From positions 29,140,001 through 29,204,000 of the forward strand of contig OZ076418.1 of assembly GCA_964187785.1 (NCBI GenBank): a stretch of DNA of 64,000 nucleotides, given 5' to 3'. Source of the DNA: Amphiscolops sp. MND2022. Its lineage: Eukaryota. A program made the translations under genes and the position numbers. Positions 20,401 through 57,293 of the stretch are shown here, piece after piece. Within the stretch, counting starts at the first letter, position 1. Every line of letters begins with the position of its first letter. Under the pieces are notes generated by a model. It saw only the letters and a list, made by a program, of their open reading frames with translations, made no database searches and was not told the DNA's origin.

Positions 20401-20403
20401 CTG

Positions 20404-25651: not shown

Positions 25652-25676
25652 TTCTTCTCTTCTTGATTGAACTCAG

Positions 25677-25890: not shown

Positions 25891-26029
25891 GACTCCAAGA
25901 TCCAGACACTTGTTCTTCTTGGACAATCTTTTGTTGTCTACCAACGAGTCGTCTTCTTCTAGTCCGGGTCGTCCACCAACGAGTTGTCCGTGTCGTCCAC
26001 CAACGAGCTGTCCGGGTTCGCGGACCAAA

Positions 26030-28843: not shown

Positions 28844-29208
28844 AAATATTTGAAACGGATGGAGATCGTGGAGATTTGGAAGAATTTGGGAAAAATGCAA
28901 CATAGATGATAAAATTTTCCTCTCCTACAGAAGAAACTGTGGGGCTGAAAAAAATTGCGATTGAGCCTTGCTTTTGAGCATGCCCTGTTGAAATTGTTTG
29001 ATTTTTTTTCATGTTTTTCTAAGTTTCCAAGCACATTCATAATAACTTTATGAAACTCTGACAAAAGTTTCCATGTAAAAAGAAGTAACTGTTCTATTTG
29101 GTTTTTAACAAGCAGCCAGAAAGATGCATTTAAATATTGAGAGGCATACGAAGCTATGAAATTTTGCACGATTTATAATGCCGAACTGCTGTTTTTGAAA
29201 TCGGCTCG

Positions 29209-30959
29209 TGTCGCCGGGCTTCCCCTGCGAGATGTCCGGAGTGCAGCATCGATGATCAGTTCAACTTGCTCCTTCCTACCGCCTGAGACCCGAAGATCCG
29301 AATCAAAGCGTCATCAGTGGTACAGACTTCAAAAACATTTAAAGTTACCATAAACTGAGATAATCGTTTTAAATGTTTGTTCTTGTTGCTAATTTCTTAG
29401 CATTCGTTTGTGTTATAGTGTTCGTTAATGTTAAATTGGATGCCCTGTTGCCTTCATTGATTTAATTGTAACAACGGTCTGACCGCTGGCAAATCGAAAG
29501 AAAAAGAAAAACTTTGACCAAATAAATTAGTCTCTAGTGATAATGTTACTAGCTGACCCAAGCCAAGCCTTTATTTTTACTCCCACTTTACCTTATAAGA
29601 GTGTACTGTAGTTTGATATAGCTTTCAAAATAATAGAGCATTTGTAGCAAGACTATGTAGGAAGCTTTCATAATTTGCATGATGAATTATCCATGAAACA
29701 GCATACTGTGCTCATACTTCTTTTCATTGAGAGTTTATACTGCTTTGTGCAGTTCTTACTAAGCCACATATGCGGCTTTAGCTAAAAAACAGTATGATGA
29801 CTACATACGTGCGGATAGTTATGCTACTTACCGCATTATGCGGAAGTATTGTAAAAACATCATGATGATTACATCCGTGTGCACGTTTATACTCCTCACC
29901 GCATTATGCGGAAATATCTCAAAACAGCATGAAGTTTAATTCATAATTGACATAATGAACAGCACCGAACTGCATTATGCGGTTCCCATAAAACAGTATA
30001 TATGCGGATATGCTGACAGAACGTCATAATCCGCATATTGCTTCTACAGTAATTTACTGATGTAGCAGTTCTATATTTAGACCTTCTAGGGATATGACGT
30101 TATGAAGTATTTTTAATCCCTGACCCTAGAAACATGACGTTATGATGATTTGTATAAAATTGATTGTCATGCTACTAAAAATACCAACCAAAAGAATCAT
30201 TCGAAGCGAGTCCCTAAGAAATCATTTTCCCCACATTCATTCGAAAAATCTCACACAGAACACAGTCACTTAATTTCACAATCTACCCACAGTTCTCAAA
30301 CTTGGCAGTTTTCTTCCTTTGTAAAGATAACTTCCACGATTTCATTTCACCACAAAATCTTCGTAATTCAAAGATTTCTACACTCAACACTGTTTTCATC
30401 ATGGGAAATAAAAGAAATAGACGTTCAAGAAGGATAGAATCTCAGTCATTGGACAGAGAAGAGAATACTTCAGAAACAAGCTTCACTCAAGGTAATGCGA
30501 CTTTAGTTGATGTTTCTGAAAATGTTAATAACATTTTTGACAGGAACTTAGGTAGCGAACTGACAGAACCTTCGCAAATCAGCAATGAAATAGAAGTAAT
30601 ATCCCAGAGATTATTTGAACAGAACAGTAACAAGATGACACAAATCGAACAGCAACTGAATAGTAAATTCGAAGAGATACTTAGAGAAATTAGAACAAAT
30701 AGAGAAAGCAATTTGGCAAATGATGAAGAGGATGCCGAGAACAACAGGCCAGGTCCATCTAACTCGAAAAACAGAAGTCTCAGTAACAATCACGCATCAA
30801 ATACAACATTAGACAAAGACAAAAATCAGGATGATCGGTTTCATCCATCTGAAATGGGTGAATTAAGACAACCATACACGCCAGTCGGAACTGCTAATGA
30901 AACACTAGACGAAACCATCATTATAAACGAAAACAGACAGGAGAATGCCGATCATCACA
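29209..30959 (+). repeat. Gypsy 5-prime LTR (1751 bp)
   Basis: About 13 substitutions and one 8-bp indel versus the 3-prime LTR, counted by eye. Confidence 0.95.
29695..30045. promoter_or_regulatory. Cluster of CCGCAT/ATGCGG/CAGCAT motifs in the LTR, including two CCGCATTATGCGG palindromes
   Basis: Palindromes at ~29831 and ~29900, more half-sites nearby, upstream of a TATA-like gtataaaat at ~30151. The regulatory role is inferred. Confidence 0.5.
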
Positions 30960-32068
30960 TGGTGACAGGACCTACCAAGAACATCCTGAGACAAAGCTCT
31001 ACTAACTCTAACACAACAAATACAATTGGACCACACGTAACAACTCTTCTCGAACACCCTGAAACATCAGACCCTGTCAGCCAAATTGCATTAGCAATTG
31101 AAAAACTGGCACGAAAAAACCCAGAACCCTCACTCTATCACCCGAAAAACACACTCACCTTTAACGGTAAATTAGAGAAAAATGAAAAGTTCGAGTACTT
31201 TGAAGACCTTTTTCACACCACACTCAGGATGCAACCTCATCTCACTGAAGAGATGAAAATAAACCATTTTCACGCCCATCTCAGAGGACTGGCGTTAAAA
31301 ACCTTCAAAAACATACAACGCACACCTACCACAACACTTGAAGACAACTTGGTAGTATTCCGCAGAAAGTATGTCAAGCCTGAATCTAGTGGTTCAGCCA
31401 AACATAGATTCAACAGGCTTATGTTCCAACCCGAAAACCAGAAGCTGCCCGACTTTCTCGAAGATCTACAAGAGAGTGCTGAAAAAGCCTTTGGGGAAGC
31501 AGCGCCACAGATGATCGAAAGTCTCATATACGCAAAAATGCCTCCCCATCTAAAGAAATCAATCAACCAAGCGTACCTTGAGAATGGTACCTACGACCAA
31601 ATTGTACGACACTTAGAACGCGAAATGGAACTCAATGGACTCGAAGCAGATGAGCCATTAGTCAAAACACAAATGACAGCTGTAAAACAGCAAACCAACA
31701 CACAAAACACTAAAAGTTCGACACAAAACACAAAATCTAAAACCAAAACTCCCAACACAGTACCCAACAACACTCTACAAAACAACCAATGTCGTTATTG
31801 CAAAGAAGAAGGTCACATGGCGAAGGAATGCCCAAAACTTGCAAAACGGCAAAAACTCGATAATGATCCAGATGCACCACGATGCTCCCATTGTAACACT
31901 ACAGGACATGAAGAACCCAACTGTTACTTTGGAGCTAACATGGAAAATCGTCCACCCAAATGGACACTGACAAAAAATCAACAAAAACTCATTGACGAGT
32001 ATAAAAAATCAAACAAGCCCATCAACCCACGAAGCACGAAACCTTCAACATCGAAGGCCTTAAACTAA
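30401..32068 (+). CDS. gag: Gypsy Gag (two CCHC knuckles)
   Basis: ATG at 30401; FNGKLEKNEKFEYFEDLF capsid region; CRYCKEEGHMAKEC and CSHCNTTGHEEPNC; ORF intact. Confidence 0.9.
   Translation: MGNKRNRRSRRIESQSLDREENTSETSFTQGNATLVDVSENVNNIFDRNLGSELTEPSQISNEIEVISQRLFEQNSNKMTQIEQQLNSKFEEILREIRTNRESNLANDEEDAENNRPGPSNSKNRSLSNNHASNTTLDKDKNQDDRFHPSEMGELRQPYTPVGTANETLDETIIINENRQENADHHMVTGPTKNILRQSSTNSNTTNTIGPHVTTLLEHPETSDPVSQIALAIEKLARKNPEPSLYHPKNTLTFNGKLEKNEKFEYFEDLFHTTLRMQPHLTEEMKINHFHAHLRGLALKTFKNIQRTPTTTLEDNLVVFRRKYVKPESSGSAKHRFNRLMFQPENQKLPDFLEDLQESAEKAFGEAAPQMIESLIYAKMPPHLKKSINQAYLENGTYDQIVRHLEREMELNGLEADEPLVKTQMTAVKQQTNTQNTKSSTQNTKSKTKTPNTVPNNTLQNNQCRYCKEEGHMAKECPKLAKRQKLDNDPDAPRCSHCNTTGHEEPNCYFGANMENRPPKWTLTKNQQKLIDEYKKSNKPINPRSTKPSTSKALN
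30960..30972 (+). other. Primer-binding site of the Gypsy element
   Basis: TGGTGACAGGACC directly abuts the LTR-terminal CA. Priming tRNA not determined. Confidence 0.8.
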
Positions 32069-35000
32069 TACAGCCACGCCTTCAAGCAGAAACACCACAA
32101 AAACAACACTCTACTGATGACTGGCAGCATCAGTTGAGTCTCAAACCAACAAAAATCACAGTCTTTGATCATAAAACCAACAAAACCGACTCTCACACTA
32201 CAGACACATCAACTACAACTCCAGATACCCAAACAGAGGATTTATATGACCTACTCAAGGATGCTCCTGATAACTACATTCTACGACAGATCTTTGAACC
32301 TGCAACCGAAACAGAAACACAAAATCAACACCCTAACACCTCACAACCTCAAGAAACACAAACTGATCACCTAAACACAATCCACATCGACAACTCAAAC
32401 CGACGAAGACGTCACCTCAGAATTAACCAAAACTCTCTTTTGTGCATCACCTGGAAAACAACCCCTCCTTGATAATGATGTTTTCAATCATCTAACTACA
32501 GATGAAGGCAATAACATCATGTATTTGAACCTTTCTACAAACCTTACACTGAAAAAGAAACGCCATATGTACTATTTCCCAATGGATTTCGAAAAACTAA
32601 CTCTGGATGGACTCATAGATACAGGCGCCTTAACAAGCGCGATTTCAGAAGCTGATCTTAATAAAATCAAACTCTTATCAAACGAAGCAATCAAAGACAC
32701 TGGCCCAGCACCTAACTTCCAAATTATGGTGGCGAACGGTCAGCTTGAACGCCCCATTGGAACCGTCCTCCTCGAATTCGAGGTAGCAGATTTCCACTTT
32801 CAAGAGAATTGCATAGTAATGAAGACACTACCAAACCCACTTATTGGCCTGTGCTTCTTACAAAGACACAACGCTCTTTTCGATATTCGACAAGGAATCA
32901 TTACATTCCCATACTTGTCAATGCAATTGCGTCCCGAACACACAACAAACACCCGAACAGCAACACCCTTGCTGACTGAAACCACTTATACCCTACAACC
33001 TGGATTAACTCTTGCAATCTCCAGCAAAATGCCACACTTGATAGACCACAATGCAACAGGAATTGTTACTCCGTCATCACACATGGAGGAACATGAGAGC
33101 ATTTTCATTACCTCATCATTAAGCACAGTCAACAACAACGCAGTGGGTTACCAAGTGATCAATTTCTCGGATATGCCTTACACCCTTCCAGTGGACACAC
33201 ACATGGCAGATTTCCGAGTTCTCACACCAGAACAAATCAAACACATCAAACCAGTTGATCCATCAACCCTCACCTTCATGATGCATCAACATATAGAGAA
33301 CACCGACCTTTACCTCAACCAACTGATGAAAACAAACCATTCATCTGATGAACAAGAAACGTATTGGTTCCCGACACCTGAACAACCTGGGGATCCAGAA
33401 ACATACACACCCATACAAAAACGAATTTACGACGAACTACTGGAGCTCAAACAACTTGAACAATTGAACCCAAACGACCACGCAGAATCTAGAAAGCAAT
33501 TCCTTGACCATTTCGACTGGACCGATACTACCCTAAGCCCATTCGAAAAACAGCACATTGAAGACATTCTGGTGCAATACCATGATATCTTTGCCAGACA
33601 TCGGTTTGATATTGGCACCAATAGAGAATTTAAGGTTAAATTGACTCCTAATGATGATAGGCCTGCCTACAGTCAAAGTCTCCCTAGGCCAATCAACCTC
33701 AAAGACGACATAACTGTTGAACTAGCCCTTCTCCATCGTTATGGTATCATCACAACTTTACCATTCTCTAAGTACGCAAGCCCCATTTTTGCCCAGAGAA
33801 AACCAAATGGACGCCTTCGTCTCTTGGTAGATCTGCGCAAAATCAACAACCTCATCACCCAAGATCACGTAAACAACAACCATCCAGTTAGCACATTGTC
33901 AGATGCTGCACAGCACATGGCCGGAAAGAAGCTTTTCTGCAAACTCGACTGCTCACAAGCATACCATTGTTTGCCGATGGCTGACTATCAGTCAATACAA
34001 ATGCTAGCTTTCAACTTCGCAAGCCGAACCTTTGCATACAGACGTCTTGCTCAAGGTCTTAGTCGTTCATTATCCGCCTTCTCTTCCTTAATGAGAGAAT
34101 ATCTAGACAAGGCCATTAAGGCTGACCAGTGTGCACAATACGTTGATGACATTGGCATAGCTGCGAACGATTCAACACAACTCTGCATCAACATCAAAAC
34201 AGTCTTTGAATGCATCAGAAATGCAGAACTTAAGTTTACAATGGCAATGGCTAAATGCCATTTTGGTGTCAAACAGGTCGACTTTTTGGGACGAACAATA
34301 ACCCCACAAGGAGTCTCACCACAAACCGAGAAAGTCAAACTATTTCTTCAAAAACTCAAATTCCCGAAATCCAAAAAAGCCCTTCAAAGGTATATTGGGT
34401 TTCTTAACTACTACAGAAACTACATCCCTCGTTTATCAGAAAAGCTGTCGCCTTTCTTCAAACTACTCAAAGAAATATCACAATTTTGCATACCAAACAC
34501 CGTTTTGGACACATTTAAAGAACTAAACCAACAACTGGAGAAATCATGCAACCTTGCTCTCAAACAACCACTACAGAACAAACAACTCTTTCTTATGACA
34601 GACGCAAGTTTCACAGCAGCCGGTTATGCCATCATGATTGAAGATGACCCTAACCAGAAACTCCAATCCAGAAGAAAAACATATGCCCCAATTGCGTTTG
34701 GGTCAAAAACGTTCAACCCAACACAACTCAAAATGTCAATTTACGCGAAAGAATTCTCAGCAATTTATTTCGCGTTTTCCGAATTTGGACACCTAATGTG
34801 GGGAAGCATCTTTCCTGTTATAGTCTTCACAGACAACCGTTCAGTAACACGCTTCTTCCAAACAAAAATAATACCACCACCCCTCTGGGACGCCTGTGAC
34901 TATGTACTGCAATATAACTTCGTCATAGCACACGTTGCAGGAGCTATGAACACAGCTGCCGATTTCCTTTCAAGAGCGGAAGTAAACCTGACTGAAAAAC

Positions 35001-37058
35001 TCGAAATGAACATCCGAAATGATGTTGCAACCAAAGCAATCGAAGTCAATATTCAGTCCACAGGAGTTGCAGAGGAAGAAACTCTTTACATCCTTCCGGA
35101 CGAATCCCCCACAGAACAGCAATTGTGGGAAGAGAAAAACACAATACGCTCTATGGCAAGAACGGAAACCCACAATGATCCAGAAAACGAAGTGTCAGAA
35201 CTCCAAACTTTCCACAAACCCACAGCGGGCACAATCAATTACCGCGAAGGACACTTCAAACACAACGCCAAAATCCGCTTGGAACAAAACAATGACCAAG
35301 TATTACGCAATCTTCGATATAAACTTGAAGGTGAACCCTACGACGAAACAGAGTTTACGCAAGATTATCGCTACAAACACTATTTACAAAAGATCACCAG
35401 AATTGAAATTAAACAAGATGTCCTAACACGAAGATACTACAATGATACTGGGATGATATCACATTACCAGATACTCTTACCAAAACAACTACTAGATGAA
35501 TTCCTTCATGCACTCCATGGACATAACGCAAATCATCCTGGAATAACAAAGATGATCCAAGAAGCCCGGCAGAAGTATTACTATCCCTGCATAGCCAAAT
35601 ACATTCGAACTTGGGTCACAAAATGCTAAATGTGTATACAAAATAAACGCATCAACAATGACCTTCTGAAAACAGAACTACTTAATTGCCCAGACTGGGA
35701 TTTGGGCCCAGAAGACATTCTACAAATGGACATTCTCCCTAATCTCCCGACAAGCGAAGGTTATGACAACATCATCACAGCAATAGACGTGTTCTCACGC
35801 TATTTGTTTGCCTATCCAGTCACCAGGATCACCGCCCCAGCAGTAGCAAAAGTCATTATGGATATTTTGCGCAAACACACATACCTACCCACAACAATTA
35901 TTGCAGATATGGGCACTCAATTCAACTCACAGGTTACCAAAGAAGTTGCAGCAGTCCTAAACATAGAACTCAAACACGCAACGACAAAACATGCCCAAAC
36001 AATTGGACTATTAGAACGTACCCATGCATCGGTTAAAGCGCATCTTAAAGCAGCCACTGGAGAATTCAGAAACAATTGGCATAAGTTTCTACCTTTGGCA
36101 GTCTTGAACCATAATACAACCTACCATGCAACACTTGGTTGCGAACCTACACGGGTCTTCCATGGAAGAATCCCGCACAATATACTCGATTTCAAACTGG
36201 GGTACAATCCAAACCCTAGATTTCAACCCCAAACTGAGGTAGCAGAAGAGGTACAAAGACGGATTGCATTACTTCATGACCAAACAAAGAAAAACATTAT
36301 GCAATCCTACCTTAAATATAAAGCATACTACGACAGGAAAGCGAAAGCAGCACCCCTTACAACAGGGGATTATTGCTTTATCTTGAACCCGAAAGCAGAC
36401 ACACAGGCAACCAAAATCCCCTTCAGAGATTTCCGTTGGGTTGGCTCTTACAAAGTCGAAAAAGTCCTACCGAATAACAATTACATTGTTCGTCGTTTGG
36501 GCACAAATAAAACCCAATTGCTTCATCGTATACGACTACGTATATACATTCCACAACCACCTCTAGCTGACAATTTTGTCAGAGAGTCTGAATGGCAAAA
36601 AGAAGATACACTTATCGCTCAAGATGTCTTATATGCCCACACCTGGGACACAAATTTTGGATCGAGCCCATTTGACACTGACCATGAAATTAATGATCAG
36701 CAAGAAGACATGGTAGAATATGAGCCTACTTCTCAACCTAGAATAAACCGCCCTCCCACCCCCGATAATTCTCAAAACAGTGGGGGGAACCCCAGCAGAA
36801 CAACCTGCTGTGACCGACAAAGAACCCCAGATAATTGATTAAACCATTACAAGAAATGAAAATCAAGAGCCCATACCAGAAATTTCAAGAAATCCAGAAA
36901 CTTCCCAAGAAACCCCAACCAAAAATTCACCAAAAACTCCCAAAAATAACCCAGAAATTGATGCACAAGAAACACAAAAAACAGTTAACACGAGAGGTGA
37001 AAAATACAACTTACGCCCGAACCCTAACCCTAACTACTCAGACTCATACAGATACTAA
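32059..37058 (+). pseudogene. pol: Gypsy Pol (PR-RT-RH-INT), disrupted
   Basis: -1 frame from gag at CTTAAAC (~32059). Motifs LIDTGA, LLVDLRKIN, KLDCSQAYH, YVDD, MTDASF, TDNRSV, HHCC, LQMDIL/IADMG/LLERTH. Frameshift at ~32390, in-frame TAA at 35627-29, further shift near 36800; ends YNLRPNPNPNYSDSYRY*. Confidence 0.93.
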
Positions 37059-37555
37059 AAAAGACAAAATCAAGAGACTCAAAGACTTTAACTAAACACA
37101 GTCTCTGTTTATCTTTTGCTCTCACATCTTTTCTCTTCATTTTTTCTTTCCCAATCAGTTACTTCAGTAACCCTTTTGAGAATTGATTTACTGGAATCAA
37201 CAAAACTAACTAAACCGAATCAGGTGTAATCAACCTGAAGCAAAGCAAACAAAGTATACAAAGAACAAAGCAACAAATAAATGGAATACAAGCAACACCG
37301 CAATCTATAGAAACAGTAACAACTTGACGTCTCTCATTTACCACCGGGAGATGGTCTCTTCTTTATAGAAAGCTTCTTCGCAGATTTAGTTTGGTCAGGG
37401 GGTAGAAACGGAACCTCGCTGACGAAGCGCGGAACAGCCAAAGTAGCAGTAGCCAATTGCAGAGTCTGATCGAAACCTCTTGATGACCCACCGGAAGGCC
37501 CAACCGGGATTGGCCCAGGAACAGCAAACTTCGAACTGGGTAGAGGAATTTTGGG

Positions 37556-40500
37556 CTATTTACTAGTAGAAGAAGTGACCCGATGAGTTGGCGAAGAAGA
37601 AGTTGAACTAGAAGGTTTAGGATCAACATCCAGAGAAGTCCATGCCCTTTCCTCATCAGTAACCGTGCAGGTGAAACGGGACTCAAATCTATTCTGTTGT
37701 CGTCGTCGGCGAGATGAACAACTGGAACTAACGTCCCAAACAGAATAATCGGGATTTTCCAGCAAACTCCTCCCTTTTCCGAGCAAGGAAAAAATAGGGG
37801 CAACAGTTCTAGGATTGGAAAATAACCCTAAAACGTTGGGAATGCCGACCAGTGAAGACTGAACACTCCTAACAGCAGAAGTAAAATCACAGTTGTCAGA
37901 AGCCAAGTCAGATAAAGCAACGATGAAAACAGGTGGAATGCAAATAGAGCTGGAAATTCCAAGACAAAACAATTTGAATACAGAGAACAAATTGGTGCGA
38001 CATTGGAGCTCATAATAACCGGACATGAAGGTAACCCAGTCTGTGTCGTACTGTACTTCGCAAGACCTGAACTTCTCAACAAAAGATCGGTACTCACTCA
38101 AGACGAGTGGCTTGATGGAATTTGATATCCAGTCCCGCTGTATGAGGAAGTCGCACAATTGGTCTGATTCTTCTTCGTAGTCCTCCTCTCGCCCATGTAA
38201 TATCACAGCTTCGTCGAAAACAGACATTCCTCGGATAAACTTCGACTTGCGGATGCTGTGTTTCAGAAGCAAAGTACATAGACTTTTATAAAAACACAGA
38301 GCTTGTTCAACGAAATGGGTTGGCGTCGGAAGGTCACTCTTATTGACTAAGTCGGCAAAATCTTTATTGCGAAGAAAATCGTTGACGCGTTTGAAAGGAA
38401 GATCTGAAGACAAGTCAATAGATAAGAAGCGGTCCCAGTCAGAGATGTCCCCCAAGAAAGAATCTGGCAAGATAGTCTGGAGCTGACTATACACAAATGT
38501 GGCGTAGGAACTGTAGAGTCGAAAGCCGTCTGAGGCGATCCCAGTGACTCCTTTGAAAGCCGATTGGTCTGAATTATTTTCAGATTAAGAAAAGGGACCA
38601 GACATTAAAAGAATGGAAAAAATAGAAAAGGCTAACAATGAAGAAGCACATTCCGTACTAGAAACAACTTGGCGGGATAAGTCTTGTCTTTAAATATCGT
38701 CTCATCCAAACTTTTGGGCTGAAACATCAAAGGTTGGCCATTAAAACTATGTCAGAACAACGATATCTGGAATTTCGAAAACGAATATTACCTCTTTCAT
38801 GTGGTATTTGAAAGCCTTGATCCGGTCAGTGAGACGGAGATGAGCAACCACATGATGCCAATTCTGGTACAGTTGTCCAAGAAGAATAGCGCACTTGTCA
38901 TAACTGTATTCGAAGCTACAGAGCGCCTAAAAGAACAAATTCATGCCTGTGAGAACTAATAGCATTGGAAATGAACTTAAGACATTACGCATTATGATGT
39001 CTTCCAAATACAGTAGGATGCTAAACAGCATGCAGCATAAGATACGCGGACTATGCGGATTAACCGTGAAACCAGCATAATTCAAGAAAAACAGTATAAA
39101 AGAAACAATTACGTTGTTCAGGAGAAAACAGCATAGAAGAAAAGTTCATGCGATTTTCAGGAGAAAACAGCATAGAAGAAAAGTTCATGCGATTTTCAGG
39201 AGAAAACAGCATAGAAGAAAAGTTCATGCAACTTTCAAAAGAAAACAGCATAGAAGAAAAGTTCATGCGGTTTCCAGAAGAAAACAGCACAAAGAAGTAT
39301 CCATGCGGTCTCACTAAAAGAGTCAGCATAGAAGAAAAGTTTATGCGGTTTTTGGAAGAAAACAGTATAAAGGAATACTCATGCAGTTTTCGAAAGAAAA
39401 CTACATAAAAAAGCATCCATGCAGTTCCCGTAATGGAATGGCATGGAAGATGTGATTATGCGGTTTTCGGAAAAGGTGGCATAAGGGAATACCCACACAA
39501 GCGGAAAAAAAACAGTATAAAGATAGAATCTATGCAGTTTGCAGAAAACAATGGCTATGCGGAGTAGCAGCATAATGAAATGAAGAAACTATGGTCAAGA
39601 TCCAACAAAGTATGCGGTAATATGCGGTTTTCTGAAGACGTCTTAGGAGTGTTGATTACGGTTAGGAAGGGACATAATAATAGTTAAACAATAGAAATGC
39701 TTACTTCTCGAAGCTCCTGCAAATTGTTGAGCCAAACTGATCCCAAAGCTGTTCGAAGTTTCATCAAAAGAAATTGTAAATTGCTGTGTATGTCATAGCG
39801 GTCCAGGATTTTGACACATGGGCCCGCGAGCATTTTGTATAAATCTTCATAGCCGAAAGTGGCAACGACGCAAATGGGTGTGGATTGGTTCAGCTCAGTA
39901 GTCAATGTTTTACTGACCCGTCCATCAAACCCGAGCAGAGAAAACACAGTGGGTGGATTGCTTGTAACAGCAAGGAAAGAAGAGATGGCATCGAGGACTT
40001 TTGGAGTTGTTTGGAGACTGTTGGGAAACTCGGAAAGGCAGATACTATTGTACACATTCCCAGACCAGAAGGCCAAATTAACCTGAGCAACTTTAGTCGA
40101 GGAACTGAATTGAAGGGAACACAAGCCTCGTTGACCAATAGATGTGACAGAATATCGTAGTAACTCGTGAAACATGTAGACGAGTATTCCCTGTGAAACA
40201 TACGAATTAAATATAAGATAGATAGATGCCCAACTCAGTTAGATAACAAAAGATACTTACAAAAACACGTTCCTGTCTCCAGTCGTACTGCGGGAATCTA
40301 GTGGGCCCCTGTGCCTTGACATTCAAATTGGATAAGAGTGAAGTTAATAGGTCCAACTCTCCGCCAGATTGGAGTCCTAACAGGAGGAGCCTCATCTGTG
40401 AGCATGCGACTGATGAGGGATCAAGAATTTCTGTGTCTTTTGGCAACTCTCTCTGTCCTGGCAGCAGGTGACATTCGCCCAAAGTTGGAGTGATTGGAAA

Positions 40501-41567
40501 CGTCTGCTCCGCTTTTTCCCGTGCTTCGTCTAAAGCAACTCCAATTATCTCTCGCTCATTTTTGTCATAGAGTGGAAGTCCTGGTGTTTCTAATCTGATT
40601 CGATGCTCTCGAACCAAGTGGGCATCAGTACGGTAGTGCGATAAAATTTCGAGCGATCCTTTCGTCTTTAGAGACAACTCTACTTGACACACTCTACAGC
40701 GCCACTTGTGAGGATTCTCGTTCGGGTCAGCTGGACCTGTGACGAAGAATTTGAACACGGGATGCTTTTTATACATCTGAGCAGAAAGCTGCATTCGAGG
40801 TCTTGGTCTTTTGCTAACCACAACTTGTTCATCGGATGTTGTTTGGACCGGATCAGAAGTTTCGGTGTTGTATGAACGCCTGAGAGAGCGTCCTTTCCCC
40901 GGAGATGTAATTGGAGTCCGTTCTGCGGCACTACGTCGTTGTTCTGTCGGTGTGGATTCACCTCCAGAAGGGCCCGTAGTGAGTTTGGATCTTTCAACAA
41001 CGTGCGCAGACATTGATTGCTCAAGTTTCGTACTGACAAGAGTTTCAAGTCTCTGCTCCAGTGCCTCTAGGTCAGAACTTGTAACAAAATTGCCAAATTG
41101 TGGTAATGGGAGCGACTGAGCATTGGTAGCTGGTTCTTGACTTCCTTGCTCGTTGGGGGCTGTCACTGCAAGTTGACCTAAGTAACGTGTGGTAGGAGAT
41201 GTCCGAGAATGGACCCCTTCCAACATAGGAGTAGTCGCCCGTGAGGAACATTCATCTGGTAGAGATTTTTTCTCACCTGCAGGAGCGATTGAATTGAGGC
41301 AATCGGGTTGTTCTCCAGTCACATCAAGAATGAGTTGAAGTTTAGAATCAACGGAAGTGGCAAGGAAACTAACAGGTTCTTTAGGACTTGTCATGCTGTG
41401 GTCAAACGAGTGTTTAATACCGTCTTGGTCGAGAGTTACATTAACGGTTTCGCAGAAAGAGCGCTCTGGTTCAGGAGTAGATTGATGAAGGGGAACAACA
41501 GACGTCAAAACCGTCAATTCATTGGTAGATGTTTGTTTTTGGTGAGAGGATTGAGAATCGGTATGAG
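37556..41567 (-). CDS. Antisense spliced gene inside the Gypsy element: BED-type Zn finger + hAT-transposase-like protein (at least 1006 aa)
   Basis: Exons 40261-41567, 39705-40190, 38792-38926, 38637-38718, 37556-38568 join in phase via GT-AG introns of 70, 778, 73 and 68 nt. WRCRVCQVELSLKTKGSLEILSHYRTDAH finger; hAT-like CSLQFSSSTK...NLAFW and EYRSF...DW...NLFSVFKLFCL. Start exon unresolved (candidate ATG at ~41930). The hAT relationship is by eye only. Confidence 0.75.
39120..39360. repeat. 39-bp tandem repeat (ggagaaaacagcatagaagaaaagttcatgcgattttca), about 6 copies, in the long intron of the antisense gene
   Basis: Directly visible; each unit carries CAGCAT...ATGCG half-sites. Confidence 0.9.
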
Positions 41568-43163
41568 CTAGAACACATAAAGAATTGGAAATAATGATGA
41601 CATAGGTCGATGAAAATCAACCTGAAAACGGATATTATCCGACTAAATTATGGGAAACTGATCACTTCCTACTTTGAAATCAGAGTTAACTCGAAAAAGT
41701 GTTCACAACTTGAAACAGAAAATCCGAAAATGGACCTGTGGAGAGCGGATGTGAAAATAAAATTTGTTCAGCGGCGGAAACAGGAAGTCTTCAAGCGACT
41801 TTTGTGAAAGCCCAATGTGAAATCAAATACCGAGATATTTTCATCCATTAATTAAAGGCTGAAAATATACAAATCTTGTGTTGGCAAATCGGTTCCCTCC
41901 TTGTAGCCAGACATCGTTTCACCCAGTGGATCCATAAGACAAACTGCGAAACGCTGTAGTCGATTGCAAAACAAAGAGTCCGTGAGAATGGCAGCGTTGG
42001 AAGAATGAAAACCAAGTGAAGCTAAATCAGGATAACGAATCAGGAAAGCGGAATTGGATAATTCGAACGAAAAATGTGAGAAACTAAAGATGGCGGAACT
42101 ACAAATGACTTGAAGACTCTGAAAAATTGTAAAAACTATGAAGACTGAGAATTAATAATGTAGATTGAAATTATCAAGAAATCAAAATTATCAAAGCAAC
42201 TGGAAACAGAAGGCGTGGCAGTTAACGAGAAGGCAAAAAAGCAAATGGATGACGTCAATAATGGCGTTTTCAGTGTATCTCAAATCTAATTGGTCGAGAG
42301 CAAGTACTCAGTTTGGCCATTTCTGCCAGAATGACTAAATTGGAGGAATCCATACCATATAAGGAAACTGACAGACTTTGCGTATCAACTCGCAGCACAC
42401 TGTTACAGTGAAATTGCACTATGCTGTTCTGCATCAGAAACAGCATAATGGTCCAGCGCTATCGTGAACAGCAATGTGTTATAGTATAGGGAAGAAAATG
42501 TAACAAGGCAGCATAATGGGATTATGCGGAATTAAAAGTGAAACTGCATAACGTGTTTATGCGAAAAACTATCAAAGACAGCATGGTGAAGTAATAATGG
42601 CAATATGAGAAAATATGATGCATTATGATGTTTTCTGTAAGCAGTTTATGATATGAATCACTATTAACACTGCTGATTTGAATATTACACATTTACTAGT
42701 GAAAGAATGAAATTCCACAATTTTGAGAAAGATGATTCATACAACAAAGTGTGAAATCTTCACATGATGAATCTGAATGGACTACAACCATAATGTATTT
42801 TGATGATGAGTAATTAAAATTCAGTTACCCTTTATGGGGTAGCTACCGGCGATATATGAAAGAAACTCTGAAAATCAATATTTATTGATGATCAATTAAA
42901 GAAACTTGATGATGCTAGATTTCCATAAATTATTTGATAATTACCCAAAACCCGGGAGAAGGGTAAAAGTGAAAGTGTATTGGAGCAATTTATATAAAAC
43001 CCATAAACCTACAAAAACCTAGAAAACCTTACCATTTCGGTCTTAAATTTCCTGAAAACAGTTGATCTTCGCCTTACAACTTCCTAATCTTGTAATAATT
43101 CTTGATTCGAAATTGTGTAACAAATTGAACTGTTTATACCATTTGATTTGAAAAAACATAAAA

Positions 43164-44111
43164 ATGGGCAGCACACCTGTGAGAAGAAACAATAACACGA
43201 GGGACCCAATGTTAATTGACACTGCATTGGACCTAATAAATATCTCCAGTAGCTCTGAGGAAGGATTTACGGTGGAACGTTTCTCTTTGCCCGAACTAGA
43301 AGATATGTTCAGAGTTGCACCATCATCAATCACGAACATGCCAACTGCTTTCATGGGGTCGGCAGAGGCCTCATTATTCGTGACCAATTCAGTTGATGCC
43401 AGGTCAACAGGATGTATAGACACAAGAGGAACGTCTATTGAAACTGAGCTGATGGATCTATTGAACGACATACCGGATATTTCACCCACAACGTTCATCG
43501 ATACCTCCGACGAAGAAATGAACCCCTTCCCAGAGGCTAATTTCGCGAATGTACAAAGGAACGCGTATGGTCGCCCTACCCAGAGAGTGTGCCCTATGCC
43601 CAGACAGCAACAAGAGACACAACCTCCTAATGCGAATCTACCAACTATACCCAGCCGAACAAGCGCCTTTACAGCGTATACAGCACCACAGCAGAGAACA
43701 ACTGACCCGAATCCTCGTCCTACACAACAAGCACAGTATTTGCCGATGCCCATCCCGTTCTACCCTAATGCGTGGAACAATGTGGGATATGGGACATTGG
43801 GTCATAATATGCAACCACCACCATCAAGCAACGTTCCCGCTCATAACGGAACCTTGTTGCAAATGAACCCTCCAGTCATGCCCCAGGTCGCAGGTTATTG
43901 CCCAGGTTGCACTAAAACCTATGACCAAATCGCAGTAGAGACATTGACCAACTACGTTGCTTGGTCCGAGTATCCTGATGAAACAATCCGCGACAGAAAC
44001 GTCAGATCAAGGGCTTTTGTGGACGGATTTGGAGCTGCGTTAATCTGCTTCAAAAATGCTGGACTGTCGCCGGGCTTCCCCTGCGAGATGTCCGGAGTGC
44101 AGCATCGATGA
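43164..44111 (+). CDS. Gypsy accessory ORF3, unknown function (315 aa)
   Basis: Intact ATG-initiated ORF; acidic then Pro/Gln-rich body and a compact C-terminal region with CPGC; last 47 nt lie inside the 3-prime LTR. Confidence 0.7.
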   Translation: MGSTPVRRNNNTRDPMLIDTALDLINISSSSEEGFTVERFSLPELEDMFRVAPSSITNMPTAFMGSAEASLFVTNSVDARSTGCIDTRGTSIETELMDLLNDIPDISPTTFIDTSDEEMNPFPEANFANVQRNAYGRPTQRVCPMPRQQQETQPPNANLPTIPSRTSAFTAYTAPQQRTTDPNPRPTQQAQYLPMPIPFYPNAWNNVGYGTLGHNMQPPPSSNVPAHNGTLLQMNPPVMPQVAGYCPGCTKTYDQIAVETLTNYVAWSEYPDETIRDRNVRSRAFVDGFGAALICFKNAGLSPGFPCEMSGVQHR

Positions 44112-45823
44112 TCAGTTCAACTTGCTCCTTCCTACCGCCTGAGACCCGAAGATCCGAATCAAAGCGTCATCAGTGGTACAGACTTCAAAAACATTTAAAG
44201 TTACCATAAACTGAGATAATCGTTTTAAATGTTTGTTCTTGTTGCTAATTTCTTAGCATTCGTTTGTGTTATAGTGTTCGTTAATGTTAAATTGGATGCC
44301 CTGTTGCCTTCATTGATTTAATTGTAACAACGGTCTGACCGCTGGCAAATCGAAAGAAAAAGAAAAACTTTGACCAAATAAATTAGTCTCTAGTGATAAT
44401 GTTACTAGCTGACCCAAGCCAAAACTTTATTTTTACTCCCACTTTACCTTATAAGAGTGTACTGTAGTTTGATATAGCTTTCAAAATAATAGAGCATTTG
44501 TAGCAAGACTATGTAGGAAGCTTTCATAATTTGCATGATGAATTATCCATGAAACAGCATACTGTGCTCATACTTCTTTTCATTGAGAGTTTATACTGCT
44601 TTGTGCAGTTCTTACTAAGCCACATATGCGGCTTTAGCTAAAAAACAGTATGATGACTACATACGTGCGGATAGTTATGCTACTTACCGCATTATGCGGA
44701 AGTATTGTAAAAACATCATGATGATTACATCCGTGTGCACGTTTATACTCCTCACCGCATTATGCGGAAATATCTCAAAACAGCATGAAGTTTAATTCAT
44801 AATTAACATAATGAACAGCACCGATAAATTATACTGCATTATGCGGTTCCCATAAAACAGTATATATGCGGATATGCGGACAGAACGTCATAATCCGCAT
44901 ATTGCTTCTACAGTAATTTACTGATGTAGCAGTTCTATATTTAGACCTTCTAGGGATATGACGTTATGAAGTATTTTTAATCCCTGACCCTAGAAACATG
45001 ACGTTATGATGATTTGTATAAAATTGATTGTCATGCTACTAAAAATACCAACCAATAGAATCATTCGAAGCGAGTCCCTAAGAAATCATTTTCCCCACAT
45101 TCATTCGAAAAATCTCACACAGAACACAGTCACTTAATTTCACAATCTACCCACAGTTCTCAAACTTGGCAGTTTTCTTCCTTTGTGAAGATAACTTCCA
45201 CGATTTCATTTCACCACAATATCTTTGTAATTCAAAGATTTCTACACTCAACACTGTTTTCATCATGGGAAATAAAAGAAATAGACGTTCAAGAAGGATA
45301 GAATCTCAGTCATCGGACAGAGAAGAGAATACTTCAGAAACAAGCTTCACTCAAGGTAATGCGACTTTAGTTGATGTTTCTGAAAATGTTAATAACATTT
45401 TTGACAGGAACTTAGGTAGCGAACTGACAGAACCTTCGCAAATCAGCAATGAAATAGAAGTAATATCCCAGAGATTATTTGAACAGAACAGTAACAAGAT
45501 GACACAAATCGAACAGCAACTGAATAGTAAATTCGAATAGATACTTAGAGAAATTAGAACAAATAGAGAAAGCAATTTGGCAAATGATGAAGAGGATGCC
45601 GAGAACAACAGGCCAGGTCCATCTAACTCGAAAAATAGAAGTCTCAGTAACAATCACGCATCAAATACAACATTAGACAAAGACAAAAATCAGGATGATC
45701 GGTTTTATCCATCTGAAATGGGTGAATTAAGACAACCATACACGCCAGTCGGAACTGCTAATGAAACACTAGACGAAACCATCATTATAAACGAAAACAG
45801 ACAGGGGAATGCCGATCATCACA
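44065..45823 (+). repeat. Gypsy 3-prime LTR (1759 bp)
   Basis: Copy of 29209-30959; its gag fragment has a TAG at 45538-40. Confidence 0.95.
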
Positions 45824-46513
45824 GCTCGGTCCTAATCGCTTTTAATTCAATTCTAATGCTGAGCATCGCCGATCACCTCTTAAGATTCAAACAGGTGTCC
45901 AGCTTGACTACTAACTCTAAGTTGAGTGCTTTAGAAACTATAATGCGAAACAAAGCGTGAAAGTGATGAAAAGAAAGAACTAAAACGAAGTCGAATCGTT
46001 TCAATCTCGATTGAAATAGTACACGTTGCCTTGCGATCTTAAAAAATTGTTTTAAGCATATACTGGAGGTCTCCTTATTCAGCTATAAAGCTTTGGTTTA
46101 TATTTTAGCAAGAAAGTAGTATCAAACTTTCCATCACATTCAACTTAAGTACACAAAGTGATTACTGAGATTTCGGCGCAAAAGGCAATAATAAAGTTTC
46201 GTACTAAGTATGAACGTTGATGATAATCGCGTCATATTTTGCATTTCTGTGGTACCAAGAGATTCAAGTTGTCAAACTATGTAAAATTTTGTTTTGCCAC
46301 AATTGGGTAAAAATAGAATGAGGTCTTAGGAGAAGAATACATACGCAAATACAGCCAAGTCGTGCTTCGGCTATCTCAAAAACGATAAACTTCGGCTTCT
46401 ATTTTAATTGAAAAAAACTTGAAATTAATTTTAAAAAAATTGAAATAAACTTACCAATTACTGAAGGAAAAGAAATTTAAAAAAATAAAGAAAACTACAG
46501 TAAAAAGAGGTAA

Positions 46514-47308
46514 CTAAGGATCAAGCGTCCTCCAAAAATCTTGGTCGGTTTCACAGACTGATTCAATCAATGTCAGCGATTTCCTCAGGGTTTCCACGTT
46601 GAATCCTGTCCTGACGCACAAAAGTTTCGGATACCGCTGACAGAGACGATGAATCCGCATCAACTCTTTTATTTTTGTAACTCCATAATTAATGTGGAAC
46701 AAAGATAAATGCTCTTTTAATTTGACAGGCGATTTGGACTGCAGTTTCTCTGTTAGTGCCACAATTAATTTTCCTATAGCGCAGCTTTGAGCAATAAGCC
46801 CAAAGTCTGACGCTTCATGCAGTTTTTTAATTTTCTCACATAACAAATCCGCACTCCCGTCAACAGAGTTGTTATTAACCTCCTCGACAAACGCCATATC
46901 TTGAGGCGCTACACCGTCATTAACAGCGGAGTACATCTGTTTTTTGACGGAATCGTGCGACACAGGAGAACACTTCTTTCTATTTTTCGGAACTGGCTCC
47001 GGAACATTTTCCAACGATGAGGACGAGGAGGAAGACGATGAGGCGAAGGACGATGAGGCTGAAGACGAGCTGGACGCCGAAGACGGGGAAGGAGGACAGG
47101 ACTCGCTAAAAAATTTCTCCTGAACTTGCTCAAAAATGTACTCGCTCATTTCGTCCGTAAATTTTGTATTCGTCCTGTAACAAGTTCTCGACGCCAGCGA
47201 GAATCCGCACAAAAGGTGGGCAAACGTCTTTGTTTCCTTCTCAGTGAAGGAAACGCCGACCAACTGCTCCCTCAGGCTCTCGAAAGCCCGAACAACACAC
47301 TCCGGCAA
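46514..47308 (-). CDS. Polinton accessory protein, unknown (264 aa)
   Basis: Intact ORF, Ser-rich linker and helical C-terminal domain; co-oriented with the Polinton genes. Confidence 0.65.
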   Translation of the reverse strand: MPECVVRAFESLREQLVGVSFTEKETKTFAHLLCGFSLASRTCYRTNTKFTDEMSEYIFEQVQEKFFSESCPPSPSSASSSSSASSSFASSSSSSSSSLENVPEPVPKNRKKCSPVSHDSVKKQMYSAVNDGVAPQDMAFVEEVNNNSVDGSADLLCEKIKKLHEASDFGLIAQSCAIGKLIVALTEKLQSKSPVKLKEHLSLFHINYGVTKIKELMRIHRLCQRYPKLLCVRTGFNVETLRKSLTLIESVCETDQDFWRTLDP

Positions 47309-47427
47309 CTCCTGTTAACGAAAAAAATTGAACCATGGATAAAAAATTTATTGGATAATACCAAGCTGGGCAAACAAAATATCAGAAACATGAGAAGTAT
47401 AAATTGGAAATAAAATTACAAAACTTT

Positions 47428-47910
47428 TCAACAAAAATTATCGGATATAAAACGCAAGATATCTTGTTCCGTGGCATATGCTGGGTAATCCGACACAAGC
47501 AAATCTCGTTCCGAAAATCTTTTTTGTTTTGTTGAATAAAAAAAGTGAGCCATGAAAACACAGTATATCCCACAATTACCACTATCAATAGATTGCATAA
47601 ACACTTTGTTCGGAACATATTGATATAAGCATTGACCAGTGTGGATGGCATGTTTTTCTATTTTTGAGAAAATTTGAGGAAAAAAAGTCTCGAAATCTCT
47701 ACCAAAGCTATCATATAGGAGAATATTTTTGTTCTTCGAAGCAATCAAAAGCCAATGCTCTCCACTGCTTTCAGCGGGTAGGGTATTCACGATTACAAAC
47801 TGTCCGCTTTTAGGGGGAATAAATGTGTCTCTGGAGAAGCATCCCAAATATTTAAACTTCAACACGGGGTCTTTATTAACGAGTAGCGTAATTTGGAGAT
47901 TGTCAACCAT
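47428..47910 (-). CDS. Adenain-like maturation cysteine protease
   Basis: FKYLGCFSRD, IVNT...SSGEHWLL (His), YDSFG (Asp), QSIDSGNCGIYC (Gln/Cys); intact. Confidence 0.9.
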   Translation of the reverse strand: MVDNLQITLLVNKDPVLKFKYLGCFSRDTFIPPKSGQFVIVNTLPAESSGEHWLLIASKNKNILLYDSFGRDFETFFPQIFSKIEKHAIHTGQCLYQYVPNKVFMQSIDSGNCGIYCVFMAHFFYSTKQKRFSERDLLVSDYPAYATEQDILRFISDNFC

Positions 47911-49240
47911 TGTAAATGTTGGAGTTTTTTATCACTTCGCGGTTGCGATCAATCAAGACAACAGAACGTCTTTCACCCAAAAGTATCAATCGTATCGCTT
48001 TTGTAGTGGGCTCTTTAAACTTCAATTCCAAGCCCAACCGAGCAGCTGTAAGTTCGGGTCTGATTGTGTTGTCGTTAATGTGGTAATCAGCTGTTAGGCG
48101 AAAAACCAGACAGAAATGATTTTCGAAAGTGTCGAGAGTGATACCATTTCCACCGTGTTCGAAACCCAACGCTTTCAATGTGGTGTAATAAGCCCGAACC
48201 AGTGATGAATTCATGCTGAGAGGAGTTCCGCCCACAACATTTCCCTCACGATTGATTCTGACGGTGTCCAGTCCAAGACGCTGGAAATGAAACGGATTAG
48301 TCCTGTAACTTCCACTGAAACTGGTTTCGGGTATCATGAGTAAGACAAGACGGCTAATAGGAGCTCTATTGAAGATATCATCTTTGTAATAAAGTGTGAC
48401 TCCCTCCGCAAATAGAAAAGACTTAGTCACCACTTCTCTAAAATCGTATTGAGCAGCTTTTCTAGTAAGGGCACGTTCCAATCCAAGAAATGTTTCGTTT
48501 TTAAGTTCCTGCTTATGAGCAATCAAGGACGCGTTCAGTATTTGAATGGCGTATTTACCTTGTGAGTCTTCTGTCCCCACCGTATGAAGTAAAACAAATT
48601 GATCTGGCGAACGATAGAGGCGGATTCTAACATCGACGCCGGGAAGAATAAACTTATTGTTATCGGCCAAAAAACTATCAGATAATCTTCCGTAGTAACT
48701 CCATTGTTCAGTAAGTCCCACTCCAAGTTTCCGCCTATTGGAAAACGCCTCCCCCGAGCTGTCGGAAGGATCTTCTTCAATTTCATACCCTTGACATCGT
48801 AGCCAACCTTCTTTGCAGCTCTCGTTATGGGATAATTCCGCTTCTACCAACGCTCTGTAGGGATAGAGGTTATTCGACGATGAGACAGGGGTCCCATTGA
48901 GTGCTACTTCTACATTCTGGAAAATACTATGCATCAAGTTATTGACAAAGACTGGTTTTTTGCTCACATCGTCGTCGCTTTCAGTTTTTGAATTAGACAA
49001 GTGCTTCAATTTTACGTCCAGTTTCAAAAAGAGATTCACCAGATCAGTCACCGTTCCTCCAATGTCCGTTTTTGCGCCTGTGAACTCAAAATCCAGAACG
49101 GGTCCGTCGGCACTTGTTGGAGTGAAAACTTCTTCATTGTACCCTCGCTGGAAATCAACAAGTATTTCAGATGATCCAAAGAGCGACAAACCAGAATTTG
49201 TTCCTGGTTCGGGCGGTTCTGAGTAAATAAAGTCAGGCAT
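47903..49240 (-). CDS. Major capsid protein (double jelly-roll, Polinton type)
   Basis: About 445 aa intact ORF; FVNNLMHSIFQNVEVALNG, NLYPYRALVEAEL, QGY, NPFHFQ motifs; stop overlaps the protease ATG. Confidence 0.88.
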   Translation of the reverse strand: MPDFIYSEPPEPGTNSGLSLFGSSEILVDFQRGYNEEVFTPTSADGPVLDFEFTGAKTDIGGTVTDLVNLFLKLDVKLKHLSNSKTESDDDVSKKPVFVNNLMHSIFQNVEVALNGTPVSSSNNLYPYRALVEAELSHNESCKEGWLRCQGYEIEEDPSDSSGEAFSNRRKLGVGLTEQWSYYGRLSDSFLADNNKFILPGVDVRIRLYRSPDQFVLLHTVGTEDSQGKYAIQILNASLIAHKQELKNETFLGLERALTRKAAQYDFREVVTKSFLFAEGVTLYYKDDIFNRAPISRLVLLMIPETSFSGSYRTNPFHFQRLGLDTVRINREGNVVGGTPLSMNSSLVRAYYTTLKALGFEHGGNGITLDTFENHFCLVFRLTADYHINDNTIRPELTAARLGLELKFKEPTTKAIRLILLGERRSVVLIDRNREVIKNSNIYNG

Positions 49241-49358
49241 CACAAACAAAATAAATAAATAAAAAAGCTACAAAAGGCACACTGAACTATTCTGAGGAAA
49301 ATATAACTAACGTAACTCTAGAGGACACTGCTCTGAAGACGTTTTGACTAAACGCGAT

Positions 49359-49908
49359 CTACAATAGATGCAAAGAAATCTTGGCGGGATCGTTTTTTCT
49401 TGTTTGACTTTTTACGGCACTACTCGGCTTAAACGTTTTTCGTTGACTTGGAGTTTTCTTCATTCTCGCAACTGTTTTTCTCGATCGATTTTTCTTGAAT
49501 GATTTTTTACGTTTTGATTTCGACTTTCGCACTTTTCTGACACCAATCGATTTATTTTTCTTTCGGGAGGCCACTCTCCCTTTTTTTCCAATTTCGAAAC
49601 GTTTCAGACCTCCTCCAACTTGCTGTCTGATTGTTTTTTTAGGTGCATTCTTCACTGCGGCTTTTGGCTTCGAAGTGCCATCTAAGACATTGATGACTTC
49701 CGGCGCAGCTGCTCGAAGAAATTATTTTTTCAGCGGGAATTCCATATCTTCTCATCATCGGAATAACAAACCCTCGGAAGCCCATTTTTATGGCAGTTGG
49801 TAAGCCGCTACCATACTGCCGCGACGGTGATCCTTGAAAATAATTTAGACCAGACAAGTGCGGCTTTATGTGATTAGAATTTACAGATGAGCTAGGGAAG
49901 GATGACAT
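49359..49908 (-). pseudogene. Small basic core/DNA-condensing-like protein, frameshifted
   Basis: RQYGSGL...FRGFVIPMMRR followed, after a shift at an A-run (~49730), by QVGGGL and a very Lys/Arg-rich tail. Confidence 0.65.
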
Positions 49909-50020
49909 CCCGCCTGGTTAAAGACAAAAATCGACAGCTGAAAACAAGAGCAACTTATCGCAAATAGAATGATAAAAAAAATGAAATTTAACAAAAGTAT
50001 GAAAAGATTTGAGAAACTAT

Positions 50021-50851
50021 CTAATCAGTTTTTTTGAAAACAAGATTGAGAGTTGTTCGACCAACACCAACAAAAGGTATTAAATCCCCGGTTTCAGTGC
50101 GCAGTTCTACGAGCATGTCAATGAGGTTCTTCTTGGAAACATTTTTGAAAGTAGGATTGGGAAAGGACATAAACGAGCAGGCACCATAGCCGAAAGAGCC
50201 TCCGGGTTTCTCCTCCTCCTCCTTCGGCGGCATCTGTTGAGGGTTGAATAAAGGGAATGTATTGAGAAGTGGAGCACGGCTGTTGCCGACGAACTGCTGC
50301 TCTAAAAAATCTCCATACACGTAAACTTGATGCCAATGATGAATGTCTACGGGAAAAAAGGACGGCATGTTATGGTAATCCGGTGCATGTTTCCACGGGG
50401 ATTTCACCCGCTAACAACCGAGAATGTGGAAAAGATCGGGTGACATATCAGCAAACCTGACAGTTTCTGGATAGTTCAAAACAAACTTGCCCTCAAGATC
50501 GATCAGCCAACTGAAATATTTTTTCAAAGCCTCTTTGTTCCATACTCCTCGTGCACGGTGAATGCTTCTATGTATCTCTTCAACTACCTGTTCCAAGTCT
50601 GTATAAACACCTTTTCCAAATTTGCAATTCTTTATCCATTTTTTTCCACCCACGTGGTAATAAAAGTCAAATGTCGACTCTCTAATATTGTAAATCTTCC
50701 GGGGATATGTAATCTCAGTTAATCCGACTTGCCACCTTCTCTCTAGTTCAATTGTTGTTGGTAAACAGGTCCTGAAAGACGCCAAGGTATTGGAGGGGTA
50801 CACGTCTGAAGACGCGTTAGATGAAAGGGTAATGGTGAAATGCTCCGTCAT
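50021..50851 (-). pseudogene. Minor capsid (penton-like) protein, frameshifted
   Basis: MTEHFTITLSSNASSDVYPSNTLASFRTCLP...WQVGLTEITYP at the N-terminus; VYVYGDFLEQQFVGNSRAPLL...ELRTETGDLIPF...TTLNLVFKK at the C-terminus in another frame. Confidence 0.82.
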
Positions 50852-50978
50852 TAATATGCTGGCGAGCAAGCAATCATTTGTGCGACAGATTTCGGGTTCA
50901 GTTGTGAACACAATTATGCAACTAACTCGATAATGTGTGATTAGAATGTGATAAAAATTTTTAAAATATCTGGATCGC

Positions 50979-51988
50979 CTAGAATAAAATTCGCTGATGA
51001 CGCGACCGACTCCGATCAGACAAGTAATTGTAATGAGTAATTTCTTCAGAATAAAATCGACCCAGAATTGGCTCGCCTTTCGAATCTCGTAGTTTGTAGG
51101 TAATTGGTTCGTGCGGTGGATTGCTGACTTGACTGACTCGAAAAACTTCTGAGGTGTATTGCTGTTTGTATCCCTTACGGAACGCCATGTCTTTGAACGC
51201 GATTCTAACCGTGTCTCCCACTTTGAAAACAAGAACTTTTCGACGTCTGTGATATTTCTTGTTTGCTTTCCGGTGTTCATCTTGCTGCTTGCGCAAGAGT
51301 ATTGGAACATGCGTCGCGTCAACATCGTTAGGAGACATACAAATGGACCGGTTGAAACGTTTGTTCATCAGGCTGACGAAATTTTTCAGGTTGTTTATGT
51401 AACGAAATGTTCTAAATTCTTCAAAAAATTTATAGATGAGGGTTTTAATCGAACGTATATACCTTTCAGCCATTGAACTTTTTGTCTCACTATGAGTGCT
51501 ATATATTTCAATTTCATTGTCATCAAAGAACTTTTTGAAGCTACCTTTAAATTCCTTTCTAAGATCGACCCAGACTTTGATCGGGAAGTCAAGGTGTTCA
51601 AAATTAACCATTTTTTGAACGCTCTACAAGTCTCTTCAGAAGTTTTTGACTTCATGGCTTCGACTCGTGTCTTTCGGGAAAGAGTGTCAACTGCAACTAG
51701 CAGATACTTGTAGCCATTGTTGTGCTCCGCAAGTTTCTCCATGAACGCAACGTCAATAGACCAAATATGGTTTATTCCAAGGCTTCTAACAGACAACCGC
51801 CTGAATTTCCTTCTAACTGGTTTGAACTTTGTGTAGGTAGATGATGTATGTAGAAAAGCTTTGACTTTGGCCAACGACAACCCACTAGCTTTTTTTAGAC
51901 TCTTGACACTTCCAAACGCCGCGAGATGTTTTGTTGAAGTGTATATACCATGCAGTAGGCGGAATTCAGACTCTGTCAGCTTTCTCAT
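50979..51988 (-). pseudogene. Retroviral-type (rve) integrase of the Polinton, frameshifted
   Basis: IWSIDVAFM...YLLVAVDTLSR (D1), VWVDLRKEF (D2), SMAERYIRSIK (E), GDTVRI, GRFYSEE; split between ORFs 51395-51988 and 50979-51611. Confidence 0.92.
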
Positions 51989-52012
51989 GGTCTTGGAAGT
52001 GCTAACCGACGC

Positions 52013-52666: not shown

Positions 52667-52683
52667 ATCTCGACTGTTGTTTT

Positions 52684-53780: not shown

Positions 53781-53785
53781 ATCAA

Positions 53786-57215: not shown

Positions 57216-57293
57216 TAACGCCGGCGACACAAATTGTTCCAAACACTCTGAAACGCAAGAAAAGTAAAACACAAATATTTTTCGGATCAACTC

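Follow-up and report, generated by a model that had tools for sequence, protein, structure and literature searches.

A predicted spliced antisense gene of probable hAT transposase origin in Ty3/Gypsy retrotransposons of Amphiscolops sp.

The element and its antisense gene

Here, we describe a Ty3/Gypsy retrotransposon within a 64,000-nucleotide stretch of the genome of Amphiscolops sp. MND2022 (assembly GCA_964187785.1, contig OZ076418.1, positions 29,140,001 to 29,204,000; the window in what follows, numbered from its first letter), which carries on the strand opposite to gag and pol a gene with predicted introns whose product probably derives from a hAT-like DNA transposase. The element is identified as Ty3/Gypsy by its gag, by a pol with protease, reverse transcriptase, RNase H and integrase in that order, by its pair of long terminal repeats (LTRs), its target-site duplication (TSD) and its primer-binding site (Table 1); comparison of the window with itself gives the two LTRs 98.8% identity and TG...CA termini. 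An earlier reading of the same letters, the original prediction, had placed the antisense gene between pol and the 3' LTR of one TSD-bounded Gypsy element, and the LTRs and the GCTCG duplication bear this out, although the label 'giant' was generous for 16.6 kb when planarian Burro elements, in the extract of their source, exceed 30 kb (PMC6431247). The stop within pol marks the window copy as decayed. About 560 nt of the gag frame fall within the 5' LTR (30401-30959), from where the frame runs on across the primer-binding site; sister copies and other clades share this arrangement.

Alignment of 19 copies of the window's own clade (clade A), including the window and leaving out 2 of 20 fetched loci as rearranged, gives the antisense gene six exons of 61, 1,307, 486, 135, 82 and 1,232 nt, with matching phases and 1,101 codons. 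The five exons and 1,006 codons proposed originally are real frames with canonical boundaries, but exon 1 and the last 74 codons had been missed: those 1,006 codons are exons 2-6, cut short by a stop at 37556-37558 that is premature and peculiar to the window copy, close copies having 416-aa frames there. The donor of the first intron is canonical in 18 of the 19 aligned copies, the window copy being the exception, and the C2H2 finger encoded by exon 2 (C-x2-C...H-x5-H) lies at about 40698-40618.

Table 1. Features of the Ty3/Gypsy element in the window
Feature	Position	Strand	Remarks
Ty3/Gypsy element, 16.6 kb	29209..45823	+	5-bp TSD GCTCG at 29204-29208 and 45824-45828
5' LTR	29209..30959	+	non-coding part with 12 C[AC]GCAT motifs and a 68-bp tandem repeat (29785-29932)
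gag	30401..32068	+	zinc knuckle PF00098, weak Ty3 capsid
Primer-binding site position	30960..30977	+	TGG start directly after the LTR; sister copies alike
pol	32375..36838	+	domain order by Pfam; interrupted in the window copy by stop 35627-35629
Antisense gene, exon 6	37334..38568	-	predicted all-helical domain and basic tail; coding to 37337, family stop 37334-37336
Antisense gene, exon 5, 82 nt	38637..38718	-	
Antisense gene, exon 4, 135 nt	38792..38926	-	length constant in 19/19 aligned copies
Long intron (intron 3), 778 nt	38927..39704	-	17 C[AC]GCAT motifs, 39-bp tandem array (39117-39401)
Antisense gene, exon 3	39705..40190	-	predicted RNase H fold (b1-b2-b3-a-b4-a-b5) without conserved catalytic Asp
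Antisense gene, exon 2	40261..41567	-	fast-evolving low-complexity N-terminus, then C2H2 finger and helical region
Antisense gene, exon 1, 61 nt	41875..41935	-	ATG; donor non-canonical in the window copy
Conserved promoter-like block	42250..42293	-	CCAAT in 18/19 copies, TGACGTCA in 17/19
ORF3	43164..44111	+	sense, extends into the 3' LTR; SIM-like motif near 43233-43265, C-terminal C-x2-C domain
3' LTR	44065..45823	+	

An integral gene of the family

Sister elements carry the gene at the equivalent position. Among 39 loci fetched from genome match lists, with preference for distinct subfamilies and long frames, it is antisense to gag-pol in 38, spread over five clades (A-E), with pol on the opposite strand and upstream of the last exon in 19/20 clade A, 10/10 clade B and 9/9 clade C/D/E loci; most of these loci have paired LTRs plus 5-bp TSDs of their own. 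The genome, of 1.07 Gb, yields at least 121, at least 150 and at least 96 matches for three of the clades and 27 exon matches for a fourth; the antisense protein is about 22 to 96% identical to that of the window, and pol about 52 to 97%. Clades A and C are separated in the trees of the integrase, of exon 6 and of the finger region alike (15 rows each). In public proteins, exon 6 matches 253 clusters (50% identity), of which the ten examined are unnamed ENA predictions.

The ratio of nonsynonymous to synonymous substitution rates (dN/dS), which the original prediction had named as a check, is well below 1: when the window is compared with six close copies, the finger exon gives 0.03-0.10, exon 3 gives 0.13-0.39, the core of exon 6 gives 0.10-0.19 and the N-terminus gives 0.26-0.35, against 0.04-0.17 for pol. 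The gene is real, conserved and under purifying selection in at least five Gypsy clades, and we have very little doubt that it is an integral, spliced accessory gene of the element. A nested hAT insertion or a neutral passenger could find some footing in the broken window copy, in exons 2-6 having at least one break in 12 of the 19 aligned copies (and none in 7), and in the single exception among the 39 loci, a rearranged fragment with no gag-pol nearby. Single copies of any retroelement decay after insertion, however, and the shared place and strand across five clades, the low dN/dS and the lack of insertion ends all speak against it; when all position pairs around the gene were tested, no credible terminal inverted repeats (TIRs) with an 8-bp TSD emerged, in line with the original prediction, the one weak pair (9/12 arm, 7/8 flank) comparing with 29 chance pairs at 10/12. 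Genomic context and dN/dS thus refute this alternative, to which we leave next to no probability.

Between clade A subfamilies, synonymous divergence (dS) is about 1-1.8 in pol and saturated in the antisense exons (window 32375-41567 against L035-L050), and one copy (L031/L032) is more distant in pol and closer in exon 6, which suggests module exchange by recombination between these subfamilies. Two clade B elements (L057/L058) stand head-to-tail in tandem with a period of 14,465 nt and shared LTRs, and internal tandem duplications of 4.3 kb (L013/L014) and 3.4 kb (L065/L066) have copied parts of the antisense gene or of ORF3.

Introns and splicing

The predicted introns are likely to be real, judging from how their boundaries have been conserved. 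Nine divergent copies, with 60-70% identity at the protein level, retain 87 of 90 predicted splice dinucleotides, compared with 222 of the 828 other GT/AG dinucleotides within the same introns (27%), and intron lengths vary independently of frame (64-112 nt, 69-76 nt and, for the long intron in sister copies, 614-1,087 nt) with exon phases held constant. Intron 2 and the last intron occupy equivalent protein positions throughout clades A-E. Four of nine clade B copies lack intron 4, and the D and E copies read lack intron 3, cleanly in both cases. Splice-site conservation and this clean presence or absence between clades support an intron-containing gene, as originally proposed. Introns on the antisense strand stay in the sense genomic RNA and hence pass through reverse transcription; their retention in copies with 99.7-100% identical LTRs is what would be expected if that RNA is the template.

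The predicted protein

An RNase H-like core is present in the predicted model of the N-terminal half, together with a zinc finger (predicted local distance difference test score, pLDDT, 73). Searched with Foldseek, the model finds as its best BFVD match a hAT protein (356 columns, E 1.8e-4) and as its best PDB match Hermes (E 1.1e-3), and the Atlas leads are PF05699, PF18658, PF02892 and FAM200/ZBED5, all below 0.9. The finger, C-x2-C...H-x5-H, is intact in 36 of 40 loci; the zf-BED profile reaches E 0.067, in just 2 of 136, and Atlas leads for the finger again stay below 0.9. For the C-terminal dimerisation domain of hAT proteins, PF05699, there was no Pfam match and no fold match, the Atlas lead being 0.89. 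Because the fold searches agree, with hAT proteins and Hermes coming first, but profile-profile alignment did not support a hAT origin, we regard such an origin as probable on the strength of the model and short of demonstrated; the hAT-like derivation proposed at the outset stands to that extent. The alternative that the RNase H fold came from elsewhere, be it a different DDE superfamily or an RNase H-like protein of the host, would leave the rest of the account standing, but we consider it improbable: in two Foldseek libraries the top-ranking matches, with the longest alignments, are to hAT proteins, the order of finger, RNase H core and helical domains suits hAT, and the Atlas leads for both halves indicate hAT families. 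The same genome also holds hAT transposase frames of the usual kind (L091-L095), which are 600-700 aa long and have the canonical motifs; none of them is detectably related to the antisense gene.

Across 30 aligned rows from the five clades, no invariant acidic residue stands at the end of strand b1 or b4. The region of E-R-x-F-S has no conserved Glu, and neither a conserved D-D-E triad nor C-x2-H was found when positions were located from the strand ends and by visual inspection, without residue-level superposition. On these alignments the protein is very probably catalytically dead, as the original prediction held from one copy's motifs. An active nuclease or recombinase with non-canonical residues, which would be a second DNA-cutting enzyme of the retroelement, would be in keeping with one acidic position after b5 that is D or E in 30/30 rows and with several W/R/L positions that are nearly invariant; a single acid is insufficient for a two-metal site, however, both strand-end positions differ between clades and C-x2-H is lost, so that this is very improbable. 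The product is not itself a member of the hAT family, because triad and TIRs fail, but is likely derived from one.

Motif arrays, ORF3 and a possible function

The word C[AC]GCAT is the most enriched in 9/9 clade A elements. Within the window it is densest in intron 3 (21.9/kb), followed by the LTR (10.1/kb) and the region upstream of the gene (4.1/kb), whereas gag-pol has 0.3/kb and the flanks have 0.8-0.9/kb. Clade C has a related word, TCCGCATA, concentrated in similar places, but there in the last intron, which is the long one; six clade B and five clade D/E elements have no such array. By analogy, the arrays offer indirect support, in two of five clades, for a DNA-binding accessory factor. 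The promoter-like block with CCAAT and TGACGTCA precedes the ATG of the antisense gene by about 320 nt.

From these features a mechanism can be sketched. The antisense gene would be transcribed from the internal CCAAT/CRE-like (cyclic AMP response element-like) block and spliced, its introns surviving reverse transcription since the sense genomic RNA would leave them unremoved. The product, with a predicted BED/Spin-doc-type finger, RNase H fold and helical domains, may bind the C[AC]GCAT arrays in the LTR, in the upstream region and in its own intron, as VANC and TnpA do with their targets, and once bound would promote transcription of the element in trans and counter silencing. That it is such a self-binding activator or anti-silencer is a tentative reading, to which we give a little less than an even chance.

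Two other roles deserve weighing against the same arrays. The antisense protein might tether or target the integration complex, or aid nuclear entry, instead of controlling transcription: binding to element ends and to target DNA is a property of transposase folds, the LTR arrays are present in the cDNA, and clades without arrays still keep the gene. Arrays also expand, however, within the gene's own intron, the intron concerned being a different one in clade A from that in clade C; this fits a role in chromatin along the whole element better than one in end binding, and an integration role seems rather unlikely. Dead transposases can also act as repressors, and the gene could be a self-limiting one that damps the element and spares the host, through protein binding or through antisense RNA. 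Antisense transcripts of LTR elements can form double-stranded RNA, as an extract of one source has it (PMC7264820). The strong purifying selection at the protein level speaks against a role of RNA only, and the families are abundant and young, with LTR identity of up to 100%; we take self-limitation to be unlikely.

Returning to activation or anti-silencing, a possible partner adjoins the antisense gene. ORF3 is found in all five clades, with a dN/dS of 0.13-0.29 among close copies; its C-x2-C domain is conserved in clades A-C, and it has no Pfam match. A pattern [VIL]2-x-[VIL]-[ST]2-acidic, which we take to resemble the consensus of a SUMO-interacting motif (SIM), occurs in 15 of 21 ORF3s and nowhere else in the 90,245 aa of open frames scanned, the pattern having been chosen post hoc after the ORF3 alignment was viewed. 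In flies, SUMO reportedly connects targeting by PIWI-interacting RNAs with chromatin silencing (10.1101/533091), and the SIM-bearing ORF3 could perhaps assist in counter-silencing. The fullest version of this idea, in which a captured and deadened transposase, kept as a spliced antisense gene, and a SUMO-binding ORF3 would form a VANC-like counter-silencing system with arrays growing in LTRs and introns, is speculative and on balance unlikely. Because CpG sites mutate no faster than others among nine close copies, with no CpG hypermutation seen, DNA methylation is probably not the target if silencing is countered at all.

Relation to known systems

Plant and fungal Ty3/Gypsy elements are known to carry antisense extra open reading frames (ORFs) in the interval from pol to the 3' LTR, examples being Grande gene23, RIRE2, Retand TRP28 (PF04195) and Boty; the extracts of the sources concerned name as open questions where the antisense extra genes of LTR retrotransposons come from and what they do, the word 'intron' does not occur in the Retand paper, and the review calls for a search for spliced transcripts (PMC7264820, PMC11963269). 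The gene described here shares its position between pol and the 3' LTR with aORF-3R (38/39 loci) and differs from the plant and fungal ORFs in its six exons, its length of about 1,100 aa, its predicted finger and RNase H transposase fold and its likely animal host; the Transposase 28 domain of the Retand ORF found no match in our Pfam scans. Extracts on extra ORFs of bdelloid elements (PMC5408684) and on giant elements (PMC6431247) describe nothing similar. The literature search, which left repeat databases and supplements outside its scope, returned no spliced antisense gene of transposase fold or hAT derivation in an LTR element.

The HBZ gene of human T-cell leukaemia virus type 1 (HTLV-1) offers another comparison, as do the domesticated hAT proteins, among them ZBED, FAM200, GTF2IRD2 and DAYSLEEPER. 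HBZ is itself spliced. Like HBZ, the present gene is antisense at the 3' end of an LTR element and, presumably, regulatory (PMC11963269, in extract); unlike HBZ, a basic leucine zipper protein driven by the 3' LTR, it has an apparent internal promoter and a predicted transposase fold. The predicted architecture of its product follows that of hAT transposases such as Hermes and of their domesticated relatives, with a finger, an RNase H core and helical domains in matching order; it lacks their DDE triad, C-x2-H and TIR/TSD, and is kept by a retroelement, not by the host genome.

The closest functional parallels are VANC of the Mutator-like VANDAL elements and TnpA of Spm, each an element-encoded accessory protein associated with tandem arrays of a short motif in non-coding parts, the intron of its own gene included. 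The targets of VANC21 are tandem motifs in introns, its own among them, and in intergenic and terminal regions of the element (PMC5735166, in extract), and transposases are described as activating cognate copies, TnpA being transposase-derived (bioRxiv 10.64898/2026.08.24.746577, in extract). VANC and TnpA, however, belong to plant DNA transposons, have demonstrated binding and act via DNA demethylation, whereas here a retrotransposon would have taken the gene from another class of element and binding is predicted by analogy; clade-specific arrays of this type are seen in clades A and C and not in B, D and E.

If the derivation is right, an antisense extra gene has an origin that can be named, a hAT-like transposase, and has been domesticated by another transposon instead of by the host. 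The gene would keep its spliceosomal introns through reverse transcription, with clean presence or absence between clades, and with hundreds of copies in five clades, only some of which have arrays, both binding and anti-silencing are directly testable. The view of transposases as latent self-regulators (bioRxiv 10.64898/2026.08.24.746577, in extract) would then, if the account is true, take in a retroelement whose host is likely an animal.

Neighbouring elements

Two further elements share the window. A Bel/Pao-type LTR element at 20045-27429 (-) has DUF1759 and DUF5641 and LTRs 99.4% identical over 1,309 nt; elements of this type are not known outside animals, which makes an animal host likely. 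A decayed Polinton/Maverick-like cluster at 46500-64000 (-) has a protein-primed DNA polymerase B and weak matches to a major capsid protein and an A32 ATPase.
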